Below are positions 11,400-38,522 of a stretch of DNA of 38,680 nucleotides, piece by piece. Source of the stretch: Escherichia phage vB_EcoS-613R10; sequence record ON470590; one strand, given 5' to 3'. The first letter of the stretch is position 1. Each line of letters opens with the position of its first letter. The notes under the pieces were generated by a model. That model had not been told where the DNA came from and searched no databases. It worked only from the letters and a program-made list of their open reading frames with translations. Both the position numbers and the translations under genes were made by a program.

Positions 11400-11822
11400 A
11401 TGGCAAAAGTATTTACACCAGAAGAGCGGGAAAAAATTAAAGGGCAGGTTGTTGAACTTGTACGTCTGAGCGGTCGCGAGACGTTACGGGCTCTGGAGGC
11501 TAAAACCGGTGCATCAAGGTATTACATAAGCACTCTCGCCAGAGAACTGGTCGCCAGTGGTGATGTTTACAATTCAGGCTACGGATTATTCCCGTCTGAG
11601 CAGGCGCGTAAAGACTGGCAAAACGCCCGCAAAAAACTATCGAGGGCAAAGGTGAAGAAACCTGCTGTAGTTGATCCGGACCTTATCTGGTCATTACCAG
11701 ACGGAGAAATACGCCGCTATGACAGGCGTCTGAATATAATCTGTCGCGAGTGCCGGAAGAGCGAAGTCATGCAGCGTGTACTGGCGTTCTATCAGGGTAA
11801 TTTTCAGGATGTGCTGTTGTGA
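11400..11822 (+). CDS. Hypothetical protein
   Basis: 140 aa from ATG at 11400 preceded by GGAGG; no family recognised. Confidence 0.55.
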   Translation: MAKVFTPEEREKIKGQVVELVRLSGRETLRALEAKTGASRYYISTLARELVASGDVYNSGYGLFPSEQARKDWQNARKKLSRAKVKKPAVVDPDLIWSLPDGEIRRYDRRLNIICRECRKSEVMQRVLAFYQGNFQDVLL

Positions 11823-11983
11823 GCCAAATTAACAATCAGGGAACTGCGTGAACTGAAAGAGAAATCATAATCCAAATCTGAATAATTAAATTTAGCACTG
11901 TAAATAAAATTTAATCCTTAACCGGAGGGGGGGGCTGCACCCTCAAAATATTAGGAGGCGGCCCGAAAGGGCGGTAATGAAAA

Positions 11984-12487
11984 ATGACTGAATTAACCAA
12001 AAAGCAATTAATCGAAGAAGCTAAATTAAAAATAGCGATTGAGAAATGCCACCCCAATTCAGGGATGGCACGGGTAGAGGGCGAATTATTCAAAATTGCT
12101 CTGGCATCGCTGGAAGCAGAGCCAGTTGGTGATTTTTATGAATACAAACCGGATGACTGGTATCAGCGTTCGGCTGGAGATAAAGCGCCAAAATGGACGC
12201 CACCCTATGCCGTTTTTCCAGCGCCCGTAGTGCCGGAAGAAATGGATTTGCTTACATGCCATCTCGATGGTGTAACTGAAACATATGCTGAGGGATGGAA
12301 CGCTTGCCGCGCTGCCCTGCTTCAGGGCAAAGGGGAGCCCGGGAAACAAGTTCGCGAATTGACAATGCTGGTTAAACAATTGGTTAGTCAACTGAAGAAA
12401 CCGAAACCGGGCTGCAAATTGCCGGATAAAGTGATGGACTACCTGGAGCGAAGCGGACTTATAAGCGTGGAGGATGTTTTACGATGA
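11984..12487 (+). CDS. Hypothetical protein
   Basis: 167 aa ORF; an upstream ATG at 11977 is out of frame and stops after 4 codons; no family recognised. Confidence 0.55.
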   Translation: MTELTKKQLIEEAKLKIAIEKCHPNSGMARVEGELFKIALASLEAEPVGDFYEYKPDDWYQRSAGDKAPKWTPPYAVFPAPVVPEEMDLLTCHLDGVTETYAEGWNACRAALLQGKGEPGKQVRELTMLVKQLVSQLKKPKPGCKLPDKVMDYLERSGLISVEDVLR

Positions 12488-12567
12488 CCTGGCCTGAAGC
12501 ATTCACAACGGTAGGAATTGCGATGGCGGTGGCGCTGGTGGTGTATTCGATTTGCCGCTGGGGTTGA
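12484..12567 (+). CDS. Putative 27 aa hydrophobic peptide
   Basis: MTWPEAFTTVGIAMAVALVVYSICRWG; ATGA overlap with the stop of the upstream gene; single predicted membrane helix; too short to be certain. Confidence 0.35.
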   Translation: MTWPEAFTTVGIAMAVALVVYSICRWG

Positions 12568-12580
12568 TAATACTAAATAA

Positions 12581-12599
12581 CCAGCCCTTATGGGGCTGG
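12581..12599. terminator. Hairpin between convergent genes (terminator mainly for the minus strand)
   Basis: CCAGCCC-TTATG-GGGCTGG, 7 bp stem; on the minus strand it is followed by a T-rich run (TTATTTAGTATTA). Confidence 0.5.
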
Positions 12600-12607
12600 C
12601 TAATCAT

Positions 12608-13381
12608 TTAGAACTGTTCATTGCCATCGAGGTTAGGTAGCATAATTTTTTCAATCAAGGCGAGAGCCTTTTTGTCCCGGTCAGCGAAGTATTTCGGGGC
12701 ATATTGCGGCAACCAAATATTGTTAAAATGTTCTTTGAAATCTGCTAAATATTCATTTGGGTACAGCCTTGCAGGGTATACGCGACCATCGGGATATTCA
12801 TGGTCATAGGTAGGGAATGTTTTGGGTTCTACGTTTCTATTATCTCTTAACCATTGTGAAAATACTCTTCCTTGTGAAATGTCAGGAACCATTTTTTCTG
12901 GGAGTGTGTACCCTGCTTGTTCAAGAGGTGCAACCAAGTTGAATGTCAGTTCATTAAGAATAGAAAAGTGCGTGTGAGGAATTCTACTACGATTAACCAT
13001 GTACCGTTTTAAATGTACAGGCATTTCTGCTGTAGTTCTTTCCCCTGACATCCATTCACGAACCCATCTTGAAACCTGGACTGCAAATTTGGGCGATAGC
13101 CACTGCGCTAGATTAATAGCGATGTCAGGATGCACCCATGTCCCTTGGTTTTCAGGTCTTCCACCTTTAAATGATTGAATTAACTCCGATATGGGAATTC
13201 CCATATCGCGTGATAATTCGTCAAAAAACTCTTGAGTAGTTTTGAGTCTAGTGTAATCAGAGAGCAGTTTGCCCGCAGTTCTACACATTGATGTGGCGTT
13301 TATGTAACCATCTTTGGCACGTAAATGTATTATTTCGCCGTCAATTTCACGAGAAATCAAAGATAATTGAAAGGATGTCAT
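12608..13381 (-). CDS. KilA-N domain protein with uncharacterised C-terminal domain
   Basis: 257 aa; N-terminus (REIDGEIIHLRAKDGYINATSMCRTAGK) matches the KilA-N/APSES DNA-binding pattern from memory; C-terminal ~150 aa unrecognised. Confidence 0.7.
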   Translation of the reverse strand: MTSFQLSLISREIDGEIIHLRAKDGYINATSMCRTAGKLLSDYTRLKTTQEFFDELSRDMGIPISELIQSFKGGRPENQGTWVHPDIAINLAQWLSPKFAVQVSRWVREWMSGERTTAEMPVHLKRYMVNRSRIPHTHFSILNELTFNLVAPLEQAGYTLPEKMVPDISQGRVFSQWLRDNRNVEPKTFPTYDHEYPDGRVYPARLYPNEYLADFKEHFNNIWLPQYAPKYFADRDKKALALIEKIMLPNLDGNEQF

Positions 13382-13903
13382 TGAAAATTCCTCAAGTTGG
13401 AGAGTTCTGGAACATTAAGGCGAGGTGGCAGTAATGCACCATCTGTAATCTTTTGATACTGACGTAATCGGGCCTGATGTGCAACGCCTTGCAAGTATGT
13501 AACTCATTGAAAACGATCATTTTTATCTATTGACATCAAATGGCAAACTGTCATTGTGCGGCTATGGCAAGTGGCAAATGCTTATAAATCATATGGATAT
13601 AAATAGTACAGAAAGAGTTGTTTTCTCTAGGATATGAGTATACGCCCAATGCTGATTGGTTGAATTTTGTTCTTGTTTTAAAGGGTAAGAGTTTAAAGTG
13701 TTGGCAGTGATGTATTGGATAGTTAGAATTGCTGTGGGTGCTTGAGGCTATCTGCCTCGGGCATGAACACCAAAGGTAGATAGAGAAAAGCCCCAGTTAA
13801 CATTACGCGTCCTGCAAGACGTTTAACATTAATCTGAGGCCATATCTATGCGACACATAGAGATTAGCCTCTTACGGACCGAAAGGTCAAGGAGAAGCAG
13901 GCT

Positions 13904-14029
13904 ATGAAGCAGCAAAAGGCGATGTTAATCGCCCTGATCGTCATCTGTTTAACCGTCATAGTGACGGCACTGGTAACGAGGAAAGACCTCTGCGAGGTAC
14001 GAATCCGAACTGGCAGACGGAGGCTCTGA
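13904..14029 (+). pseudogene. hok-family type I toxin, C-terminally divergent/truncated relic
   Basis: Hand-translated MKQQKAMLIALIVICLTVIVTALVTRKDLCEVRIRTGRRRL (41 aa); the first 37 residues match HokD/RelF as recalled, then it diverges and stops early; SD AAGGAGAAG upstream; hok-like leader begins GGTGCTTGAGGCT near 13738. Confidence 0.6.
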
Positions 14030-14111
14030 TTCGTAGACTACTAATCTGAGTAAAAGACCCAGCGGGGAAAGAACCACGCCGGGACTAGTTAATAAGATAT
14101 TTATAGCGTGG

Positions 14112-14453
14112 CTATTCTTTTTTTGCGGTATAGACTTTTTCGCCTGAGAAGTCTGGAGCTACCCAAAAGTTAATATTAAACTGAGCATCATCGCTTAGTT
14201 CAACACGGTGCCAGTATTGTGGTGGGCTTGTTGCAAAAGCGCCAGCATTAATGACTACTTTTATCTCCGGTTCAGTAGCATTCTCATCAGCAAAACCATA
14301 ATATGTTACAGTACCTTCCATCACGCATAACTGTCCAAAAACACCTGCTGCTGTATTATGATGTGTTAATAACGCTGAAGGTACGTTCTCTTTTGTGAAG
14401 AACGGAGTTGAGCGTTTGATTACCCAGTCTTTAGGAATTCTCTTGTGTGTCAT
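14112..14453 (-). CDS. Small uncharacterised protein, possibly DUF1971/cupin-like
   Basis: 113 aa from ATG at 14453 preceded by GGAGGTGG; family assignment is a weak recollection. Confidence 0.55.
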   Translation of the reverse strand: MTHKRIPKDWVIKRSTPFFTKENVPSALLTHHNTAAGVFGQLCVMEGTVTYYGFADENATEPEIKVVINAGAFATSPPQYWHRVELSDDAQFNINFWVAPDFSGEKVYTAKKE

Positions 14454-15320
14454 AACCACCTCCCATAAAACATGCATTATAAATGCACCTTTTTGAGGGT
14501 TATGTCAAGCTGTTATGAAACACATAATTGATATGTTGATTAGAGGAGAAGATAGAATCAATATGGTTGTTTTTCGTATAACTATTTGTTTTACTTTTAG
14601 TTTGTGCATTCTGTGTGTTAGGAATAACTTATTAAAGTTTAACTAAAAAATCTCGATATAGTCCGCATAGATTACTGTTACTGAATCTTATTGTGTGCAT
14701 TAGTTGTGTTCTGAAATTTCAATTTAATTACTTATGATATATTTTTAACGATAAATGTTTTCCGGGTTAAAGACAGTGGGGGATGAGATAAGCAATATAT
14801 CATTAATCTTGATTATTTCCAGGATGCCTTTACTGTGCATATAAATAAATCATATACGCATCAAATAATGTAAAGGCATCCTTTTAGATATATCTTATCA
14901 AATGTTAATGATTTGAGTGGGAAACATGATTCCAGAAACTAATCATGCGGCTACTTTATAAAAATAATGCCCATATAAAACAGCCAGCGAAAAGGATTAC
15001 GGATAAAAAAGGAGCGAGATGTGCATAGTTGTTATTTTCCATGTTTAACCACCTTAAATAATTGATGATGACGGGATGTGCATCTGTAATGCTTTTGTTG
15101 AAATGTTATGATAAAAAAGAACTTTTTCATAACATTAAAATGTAATTTATCTAATCGTTTTTAATAATAAGTGTTGTATTTCTATCCTTGTATCAGCTAT
15201 TTGATATGTAGTGTTTGTTCATGTTATGTGGAGCTTTACACCATAGCCAGTTTATTTATACTTTATTCGTCAGCCTGAACAACTGGCATCTGCTGCACTG
15301 CGCCATCGAGAGATTGAGAA

Positions 15321-17887: not shown

Positions 17888-18255
17888 ATGAAAATGCACA
17901 ATGCCCCTCATTCCTGGCCTGACTTACTGGAACTCTTACAAAGTTGGTGGCGTGGAGATACGCCGCTGGGTGCAGTGGTTATGTCAATTATTATGGCTGG
18001 TTTGCGCATTGCCTATTTTGGCGGGGGNNNNNNNNNNNNNNNNNNNNNNNNNNNNNNNNNNNNNNNCGAAAAACGCTTGAGATTCTGCTTTGTGGTGCTC
18101 TGACGCTGACCTTTGCATCCGCGCTTGAGTATGTCGGATGGCCTAAATCACTTTCTGTTGCCATTGGTGGTGGGGTGGGGCTGATTGGTGTTGATGCTAT
18201 TCGTGGTGCGGCAATGAGGGTCATCGGTAACAAGTTCGGTGCCCATAAGGAGTAA
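17888..18255 (+). CDS. S: Class I holin (lambda S-like), interrupted by an N-run
   Basis: MKM dual-start motif as in lambda S; hydrophobic segments before and after the gap; C-terminus LIGVDAIRGAAMRVIGNKFG resembles the lambda S tail; directly upstream of the endolysin. Confidence 0.75.
18028..18066. other. Run of N (assembly gap or masked sequence)
   Basis: 39 consecutive N inside the holin gene; the reading frame changes across the gap. Confidence 0.99.
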
Positions 18256-37833: not shown

Positions 37834-38522
37834 ATGACAGAGACAGAATCAGCGATNNNNNNNNNNAGGAAAGATATTTTCCCTGCGTGAATATCTCCGG
37901 TGAGCCGGAGGAGTATTTCCGGATGTCGCCGGAGGACTGGCTGAGTGCAGAAATGCAGGGAGAGATTGTGGCGCTGGTCCACAGCCACCCCGGTGGTCTG
38001 CCCTGGCTGAGTGAGGCCGACCGGCGGCTGCAGGTACAGAGTGATTTGCCGTGGTGGCTGGTCTGCCGGGGGGCGATTCATAAATTCCGCTGTGTGCCGC
38101 ATCTCACCGGGCGGCGCTTTGAGCACGGGGTAACGGACTGTTACACGCTGTTCCGGGACGCTTACCATCTGGCGGGAATTGAGATGCCGGATTTTCATCG
38201 CGGGGATGACTGGTGGCGTAACGGTCAGAATCTCTATCTGGATAATCTGGAGGCCACAGGGCTGTATCAGGTGCCGTTGTCAGCGGCGCAGCCGGGCGAT
38301 GTGCTGCTGTGCTGTTTTGGTTCATCGGTGCCGAATCATGCCGCCATTTACTGTGGTGACAGCGAGCTGCTGCACCATATTCCTGAACAACTGAGCAAAC
38401 GAGAGAGGTACACCGACAAATGGCAGCGACGCACACACTCCCTCTGGCGTCACCGGGCATGGCACGCATCTGCCTTTACGGGGATTTACAACGATTTGGC
38501 CGCCGCATCGACCTTCGAGTGA
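37834..38522 (+). CDS. K: Tail assembly protein K (lambda-like), interrupted by an N-run
   Basis: After the gap the frame reads ERYFPCVNISGEPEEYFRMSPEDWL...HSHPGG..., near-identical to lambda gpK as recalled; ATG at 37834 then a 10 N gap, so N-terminal length and frame are uncertain. Confidence 0.85.
37857..37866. other. Run of N (assembly gap or masked sequence)
   Basis: 10 consecutive N near the 5' end of the K gene. Confidence 0.99.

Follow-up and report, generated by a model that had tools for sequence, protein, structure and literature searches.

BstA is an abortive-infection protein of prophages that co-localises with replicating phage DNA and blocks its replication (PMC8585504). The resident prophage is spared through a 63-bp DNA element, aba, which overlaps the beginning of bstA and neutralises BstA in a variant-specific manner (PMC8585504). 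[quoted passage not shown] Four short matches in Table S1 of that study (about 350–440 nt) may belong to the subfamily described here, in which a KilA-N domain is followed by the C-terminal domain of BstA (BstA_C). Prophage defence hotspots have been described in P2 and P4 (Rousset et al., 2022, PMC9122126).

The locus analysed here lies in Escherichia phage vB_EcoS-613R10 (ON470590), and "the window" denotes the whole stretch of 38,680 nt that was analysed. It carries a gene, termed the bstA-like gene, which probably encodes a single-protein defence (abortive infection) factor of the prophage BstA type.

Gene and Domain Organization

The gene and its two domains are as follows.

12608–13381, minus strand: bstA-like gene, intact ORF of 257 aa, KilA-N head and BstA_C tail
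13046–13342, minus strand: KilA-N/APSES-fold DNA-binding domain, aa 14–112 (Pfam KilA-N, E = 4e-27)
12629–13027, minus strand: BstA_C domain, aa about 119–251, presumed effector module

The protein was 100% identical to WP_000200358.1, which is annotated "KilA-N domain-containing protein", and members of its subfamily are named just "DNA-binding protein" or "transcriptional regulator" in the databases. The original prediction of a KilA-N gene with a DNA-binding head, running opposite to its early neighbours, agreed with these features. It had called the C-terminal 150 residues unrecognisable, whereas the domain search assigned them to BstA_C by PHROGs, PADLOC, BLASTP, hhalign and PF26567. The profile phrog_6287 ("BstA abortive infection system"; PHROGs) matched the protein over its full length (E = 2.7e-89), and the PADLOC BstA model matched aa 119–238 (E = 3.2e-21). 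BTP1 BstA was aligned by BLASTP at 32% identity over aa 125–251 (E = 3e-16), and the hhalign comparison of the two families gave a probability of 97.9% (E = 3.8e-13) in the C-terminal domain only. PF26567 (BstA_C) was precomputed on both families, and seven residues (E143, D166, S168, G170, H193, P207, and F214) were invariant in the two. As judged from these alignments, the C-terminal half of the bstA-like protein is homologous to the C-terminal domain of BstA. [quoted passage not shown]

The NCBIfam search of the protein returned no match, a Pfam copy without PF26567 returned KilA-N alone, and the PDB sequence search gave marginal Mbp1 matches at most. No ANT, KilA-C, Bro-C or other antirepressor C-terminal domain was found in the protein with Pfam or NCBIfam. 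Against a defence role count the identity to tested BstA, which is about 32% and lies in the C-terminal domain alone, the N-terminal domains of the two families, which could not be aligned even profile to profile, and BstA_C itself, which is without structural precedent.

Distribution of BstA_C and of the KilA-N+BstA_C Subfamily

A search with the C-terminal half alone against 1.84 billion representative proteins yielded 415 representatives of the BstA_C family. In nearly all cases the domain formed the C-terminus and was preceded by an N-terminal module of about 100–160 aa. Among 85 representatives, the heads fused to BstA_C were KilA-N (27), Bro-N (20), Rha (16), AntA (13), and ORF6N (2). 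This variety indicated that BstA_C is a common effector-type tail, before which one phage DNA-binding head can be exchanged for another. Three of these heads (Bro-N, Rha, and AntA) typify antirepressor-like regulators, and their presence before BstA_C counts against the defence reading. Two rare fusions were also observed. One protein of 1,230 aa (P0265) combined PriCT_2 and a DUF3987 primase-helicase with KilA-N and BstA_C, and another (P0304) combined Rha and BstA_C with DUF559 (Vsr-like nuclease); they hint at links of BstA_C to replication and DNA cleavage.

The KilA-N+BstA_C subfamily showed 55–80% identity across Proteobacteria, Verrucomicrobiota, Planctomycetota, Myxococcota, Nitrospirota, and candidate phyla, which points to strong purifying selection together with frequent horizontal transfer. 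Genes with 53–59% identity were present in MAGs of the candidate phyla radiation (Gracilibacteria and Peribacteria; L065, L097) and in Verrucomicrobiota, Planctomycetota, and Armatimonadota too, an exceptionally broad distribution given how conserved the protein is. The bstA-like gene was found in 147 of 5,426 complete E. coli genomes, 116 of them at an identity of at least 99%, and was identical in sequence in most of the 147. Its region was 100% identical to a Rac-type prophage integrated beside ttcA in E. coli 7/2 and in about 100 other complete genomes. The record ON470616 (Escherichia phage vB_EcoS-673R7) was identical over this region at the same coordinates. It was not counted as proof of lytic growth, since its study concerns prophages located in clinical-isolate genomes.

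A Variable Cargo Slot and Its Cassette

The strand of the bstA-like gene is opposite to that of the plus-strand replication genes on its left (ydaU/ydaV/ydaW-like and DUF977, Ren-like) and of the nin-type genes on its right (DUF1367/NinB-like, DUF1364, and DUF1133/Q-like). The following features lie around it.

11806–13723, no strand: variable cargo slot from the DUF977 (Ren-like) gene to hok/sok, set by prophage breakpoints
11984–12487, plus strand: 167-aa ORF in the slot, phrog_660, of unknown function
12578–12602, minus strand: intrinsic-terminator-like hairpin just past the stop codon, a ten-pair stem then TTTAGTATTA, inside the 12484–13723 unit
13382–13723, minus strand: 342-bp upstream non-coding region that co-travels with the gene, with its presumed own promoter
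13724–14079, plus strand: hok/sok type I toxin–antitoxin, conserved backbone (Rfam sok RF01794 at 13736–13906, 101.5 bits)
13904–14029, plus strand: hok CDS, frameshifted, 41 aa against 51 aa in BL21 HokD
14080–14954, minus strand: second independent indel, with the DUF1971 gene and part of an AT-rich tract
14112–14477, minus strand: DUF1971 (TehB-N-like) gene (PF09313, E = 3.5e-26; weak Cupin_8, E = 0.024)

Backbone homology to the BL21, FORC_081, and 118C prophages ended at about 11805 and restarted at 13724. The slot was nearly empty in BL21, with about 143 bp between the same breakpoints. In other prophages it contained QueH plus Kiwa KwaA/KwaB, AbiH, SIR2, or a P-loop Sll1717-family ATPase, and elsewhere a methyltransferase with DUF7167, DUF4145, or unnamed genes. 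In Rac/Qin-type prophages, the stretch from DUF977 to hok behaves as a hotspot of defence/cargo genes, and in the literature searched it was not found described as one. The slot of FORC_081 held two unnamed proteins of 320 and 333 aa, which may represent an unrecognised system.

The bstA-like gene forms a self-contained cassette that runs counter to the early operon and includes an upstream region and a terminator of its own. Its unit spans about 12484–13723 and comprises the terminator, the gene, and the 342-bp upstream region. The cassette was about 96% identical beside hok in two other loci (L019 and L020), despite different left-hand genes. The 167-aa ORF, for which PADLOC returned no match, was unlinked to the bstA-like gene elsewhere: other ORFs replaced it in these two loci, and the bstA-like unit was kept. 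As for moron or hotspot cargo, variable content between conserved flanks and an own terminator were observed, and an own promoter was weakly predicted. A weak sigma-70-like site at 13546–13519 was the sole one found on the minus strand upstream of the gene, and the promoter presumably lies within 13382–13723. Near this site, 160–200 bp upstream of the gene, three TGCCA / TTTGCCA(T/C)TTG repeats were found at 13537–13578, which could be operator-like or due to chance. A 38-aa TTG-initiated ORF (13378–13494, minus strand) overlaps the start codon of the bstA-like gene through ATGA. This ORF, which was missing where the bstA-like gene comes after cI, may encode a coupled leader peptide or be spurious.

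A 1-nt deletion leaves hok with 41 aa instead of 51, so that the "hok relic" of the original prediction is a fair name, and the small cupin-like gene and AT-rich tract placed beyond the bstA-like gene correspond to the DUF1971 gene and to a stretch with a GC content of 0.29 (14501–15000). The sok region was intact, and a full-length hok ORF was absent from the window. Homologues of hok/sok were present in more than 4,800 of the 5,426 E. coli genomes, and the near-identical bstA-like cassettes of L019 and L020 adjoined an intact hokD. The DUF1971 gene also matched NCBIfam TehB (E = 1e-12) in the N-terminal part only. The 14080–14954 indel, which separates hok from the NinB-like gene, was absent from three loci (L018, L019, and L020), where nin-type genes directly followed hok, and was present in FORC_081 without hok or the KilA-N gene. 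A horizontal insertion between the replication and nin/Q modules had been proposed, as one inverted island of 12.6–15.3 kb headed by the KilA-N gene. The acquired accessory ("moron") gene survived this comparison and the single block did not. The breakpoints were separate, at about 11805/13724 and 14079/14955, with the plus-strand hok/sok backbone between them, and the cargo slot, hok/sok, and the DUF1971 plus AT-rich indel were three independently distributed parts. The boundaries differed among the related prophages compared, so the accessory nature stands. Elsewhere in the window, N runs were present at 18028–18066 and 37857–37866, in the holin/lysis region and at the far end.

Genomic Positions of Related Genes

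The closest variants were located directly downstream of a cI/LexA-type repressor on the same strand (E. coli G6/7, PhiR5_2, and Proteus phage V3), which is exactly the canonical BstA arrangement. The G6/7 and PhiR5_2 variants showed about 77% nucleotide and 86% aa identity to the bstA-like gene, and their nucleotide similarity to the window stopped at the limits of the CDS; the V3 variant showed 81% aa identity. The window copy is prophage-borne but lies between DUF977 and hok, on the opposite strand and not downstream of a repressor, which counts against the defence reading. A position directly downstream of a prophage repressor was seen in 34 of 121 family loci, and this feature is frequent in the BstA family but not universal. 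S24/HTH repressors made up 21 of the 92 distinct upstream neighbours in the family, the others including aceK, IS transposases, and AbiTii. Other copies were found at a prophage tail-end moron site beside SocA and Fic genes, and Vibrio copies lay among short ORFs (NUDIX, acetyltransferase), apparently in a cassette array. This scatter of sites marks a mobile accessory or defence module that consists of a single gene. The Stenotrophomonas gene (L045–L058, L070), from a clade without the palindrome described below, had a fixed place in the chromosome, next to aceK, and may have been domesticated as a non-prophage copy.

A Palindrome inside the KilA-N Coding Region

A palindrome came to light through a reverse-orientation self-match, inside the region that codes for the KilA-N domain.

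13187–13208, no strand: perfect 22-bp palindrome CGATATGGGAATTCCCATATCG in the CDS, from the last base of codon 58 to codon 65 (D-M-G-I-P-I-S)

It was the only perfect palindrome with arms of at least 9 nt in the 38.7-kb window, and no further copies or half-sites were found there. When the codons of the bstA-like gene were permuted synonymously, 37 of 20,000 permutations had arms of at least 11 nt. At the same codons, homologues carried CGATGTCGGAATTCCGACATCG (D-V-GIP-T-S), CCGAAACGGGAATTCCCGTTTCGG (E-T-GIP-V-S), GGTCTATGGGAATTCCCATAGACC (S-M-GIP-I-D), CCGTTATGGGAATTCCCATAACGG (V-M-GIP-I-T), and CGATATCGGTATACCGATATCG, and a Hydromonas genome contained a 34-bp version.

Covariation was analysed in 98 unique 39-nt segments, which were chosen irrespective of palindromicity. 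At least 9 of 11 Watson–Crick pairs were formed in 52 of the 98 segments (53%), compared with 0.03% at other centres in the same genes. Cells were paired in 70% of cases, against 25–43% when the partners were slid by 1–3 columns. Both sides had changed in 11 of 12 pairs, and the number of double-change cells was 149, compared with 68 ± 8.5 after shuffling (none of 500 shuffles reached 149). The covariation score was 0.30 vs. 0.15. At the centre, the k = 1 pair was Watson–Crick in 51 of 73 segments against 49.9 expected under independence, and it is therefore uninformative on pairing through the centre. The third base of the Pro codon co-varied with its partner (G:C 49, C:G 18, and A:U 4). This base is synonymous, so protein-level selection cannot explain the pattern. 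A by-product of the D-x-G-I-P-x-S peptide was considered and rejected, since resampled codons for the same peptides gave at least 9 of 11 pairs in 7% of cases vs. 53% observed. The core codons were also site-specific, with GGA at 74% in the palindrome vs. 24% elsewhere and ATT at 85% vs. 36%. Selection acts on the in-gene palindrome, and the palindrome in turn imposes covariation on the neighbouring amino acids (M/I, V/T, T/V, A/A; D/S, S/D, V/T). A clade without the palindrome reads Q-T-G-L-P-E (Vibrio, Stenotrophomonas, and others).

Inverted repeats at the same codons were also found in KilA-N genes with other C-termini, namely those of a Bacteroides phage, Planktothrix phage PaV-LD, Synechococcus phage S-SRP02, a podovirus, and many environmental viral contigs. 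The pattern was replicated in 67 KilA-N genes without BstA_C, where 12 of 12 pairs co-varied, the score was 0.44 vs. 0.19, and double-change cells numbered 182 vs. 91 ± 7 (0 of 500 shuffles). In some KilA-N-only genes, the outer arms alone stood around an unpaired centre of 6–8 nt, or the centre was shifted by one base. A palindrome specific to BstA_C genes was thus rejected; it is not specific to BstA-type immunity, which counts against the defence reading. The bstA gene of BTP1 had no palindrome with arms of at least 6 nt. The palindrome was present in each of the 34 loci where a cI-type repressor lies directly upstream, and none of the 31 palindrome-less loci had such a repressor, a contrast that relatedness confounds. 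Rfam gave no match at the palindrome, and the literature searched held no paper linking KilA-N with such a palindrome.

What the Palindrome May Be

Among the 63 mismatches in the outer nine pairs, counted irrespective of kinship, 5 were G.T and 21 were A.C on the sense strand, and 37 were transversions. The few sense-strand G.T wobbles argue against a hairpin in the sense mRNA. The mismatch pattern is compatible with a duplex DNA site, or with an antisense or ssDNA hairpin. The palindrome is the best candidate for the cognate DNA site of the protein, possibly as a counterpart of BstA's aba.

The main alternative is that the palindrome works as a nucleic-acid hairpin (mRNA, antisense RNA, or ssDNA) for expression or stability and is not a double-stranded protein-binding site. 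This is a real possibility, although we would not expect it to be the answer. A hairpin with a 9-bp stem and an AAUU loop was predicted at −17.4 kcal/mol, the outer arms alone are kept in some KilA-N genes around the unpaired 6–8 nt, and the excess of A.C over G.T (21 vs. 5) on the sense strand is the pattern expected of G.U wobbles in an antisense transcript. However, G.T wobbles on the sense strand themselves are rare (5 of 63, kinship ignored), Rfam was without a match, and the codons chosen at this site (GGA, ATT) preserve the central GGAATTCC, a constraint that a loop would not need.

A broader proposal is that KilA-N modules carry their own cognate site in the ORF, as a palindrome of 18–34 bp, with aba-type, variant-specific self-recognition in the BstA_C genes. 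This is put forward tentatively and is unlikely to hold in full. That the palindrome is the self-immunity site of the bstA-like gene itself is likewise doubtful. A BTP1-like 63-bp aba with terminal direct repeats across the start codon was sought and none was found, which counts against the defence reading. The search at the start codon returned TTTCAAT twice (7 nt, 14 nt apart) and the TGCCA repeats upstream, all of which are compatible with chance.

Proposed Function and Alternatives

The defence reading was based on several observations in addition to the BstA_C homology (PHROGs, PADLOC, BLASTP, hhalign, and PF26567). The slot holds Kiwa, AbiH, SIR2, and others in related prophages. The closest variants (81–86% aa identity) are directly downstream of cI, with repressors among 21 of 92 neighbours, and other copies are beside SocA/Fic or AbiTii or in the cassette-like arrays of Vibrio. 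An identity of 55–80% is kept across many phyla. The defence conferred by three divergent BstA proteins provided a functional precedent, and the conserved in-gene palindrome, as a candidate cis element, was also counted in favour.

A mechanism can be proposed by analogy with BstA. The bstA-like protein would be made in the lysogen. When a foreign phage starts to replicate, the KilA-N head would bring the protein to the phage DNA, and the BstA_C module would block replication of that DNA. The infected cell would then die without releasing progeny. The resident prophage would escape via a cognate cis-acting DNA element, for which the 22-bp palindrome is the best candidate. Convergent transcription of the early operon across the gene at induction may also lower its expression, sparing the resident prophage.

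A different explanation is that the protein regulates the phage's own life cycle, as an antirepressor or host-killing protein of the KilA/Ant/Bro/Rha type with the palindrome as its operator. The heads found on BstA_C (KilA-N, Bro-N, Rha, AntA, and ORF6N) are classic antirepressor-like heads, reportedly described as such for phage proteins, and the database names "DNA-binding protein" and "transcriptional regulator" would suit it. Nevertheless we consider it unlikely, because the protein has no ANT, KilA-C, or other antirepressor C-terminal domain, and the only characterised proteins with BstA_C are defence proteins. Moreover, co-transcription with cI in the close variants would be self-defeating for an antirepressor, and the slot carries defence systems in other prophages. 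The original prediction had named a match to a characterised antirepressor as evidence to the contrary; none was found, and the protein matched a defence family. Least probable of all is a replication accessory or origin-binding factor of a mobile element with the palindrome as its cis site, as in lambda O/ori: a co-varying palindrome inside the coding sequence of a DNA-binding domain would fit, as would the relative fused to PriCT_2 and the DUF3987 primase-helicase (P0265), the adjoining replication module, and the action of BstA itself on replication, but the gene is dispensable, with the slot empty or otherwise filled in most related prophages, it occurs in just 147 of 5,426 genomes, and chromosomal non-phage copies exist too, e.g., beside aceK in Stenotrophomonas.

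BstA-type defence, the favoured reading, would give a specific and testable role to a gene annotated just as "KilA-N domain-containing protein", and would extend this kind of defence to a large subfamily over many phyla. The DUF977-to-hok slot collects known defence systems and could be mined for new ones. The self-recognition of BstA (aba) and its binding target were questions raised in the BstA paper, and the palindrome with its natural variants offers a concrete candidate; if true, each palindrome variant would give cognate specificity. The palindrome also shows with unusual clarity how a constraint on nucleic acid can shape the sequence of a protein.

Comparison with Known Systems

The closest described proteins are the BstA proteins (BTP1, BstA-Ec, and BstA-Kp; Owen et al., 2021, PMC8585504), with which the bstA-like protein shares BstA_C, the two-domain layout, and a DNA-binding-type head. 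Both are encoded by a single prophage-borne gene, and close variants of the bstA-like gene are directly downstream of cI, as is bstA. Both genes have a nucleic-acid element embedded in the 5′ half. However, the head of the bstA-like protein is a canonical Pfam KilA-N that cannot be aligned with the BstA head, the protein is about 50 aa shorter, and the window copy is located between the replication and nin modules on the opposite strand. The elements also differ, in that the aba of BTP1 is 63 bp across the start codon with CCCGCC direct repeats and is not a palindrome.

The KilA-N/APSES proteins (PF04383; P1 KilA, fungal Mbp1/Swi4, and Bqt4) have the same N-terminal fold and Pfam family, and the palindrome is embedded at the same codons in other phage KilA-N genes too. 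They differ in the C-terminal partner, which is KilA-C or others instead of BstA_C, and in the literature searched the in-gene palindrome was described for none of them.

In lambda, rexAB is located downstream of cI. The cargo slot resembles the P2/P4 hotspots and the lambda rexAB morons in being a fixed slot between conserved phage genes with interchangeable defence cargo, and the bstA-like cassette, like theirs, has its own upstream region and terminator. Unlike the P2/P4 hotspots, the slot lies between a DUF977/Ren-like gene and hok/sok in lambdoid prophages of the Rac/Qin type.

Lambda O binds ori within its own gene, where ori consists of iterons in the linker-coding region and is essential for replication. 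The bstA-like gene resembles lambda O/ori in that a candidate site lies inside the CDS of the protein presumed to bind it. Unlike the iterons of lambda ori, this site is a single palindrome in an accessory gene, and it is presumed to be bound by the KilA-N+BstA_C protein that the gene encodes.
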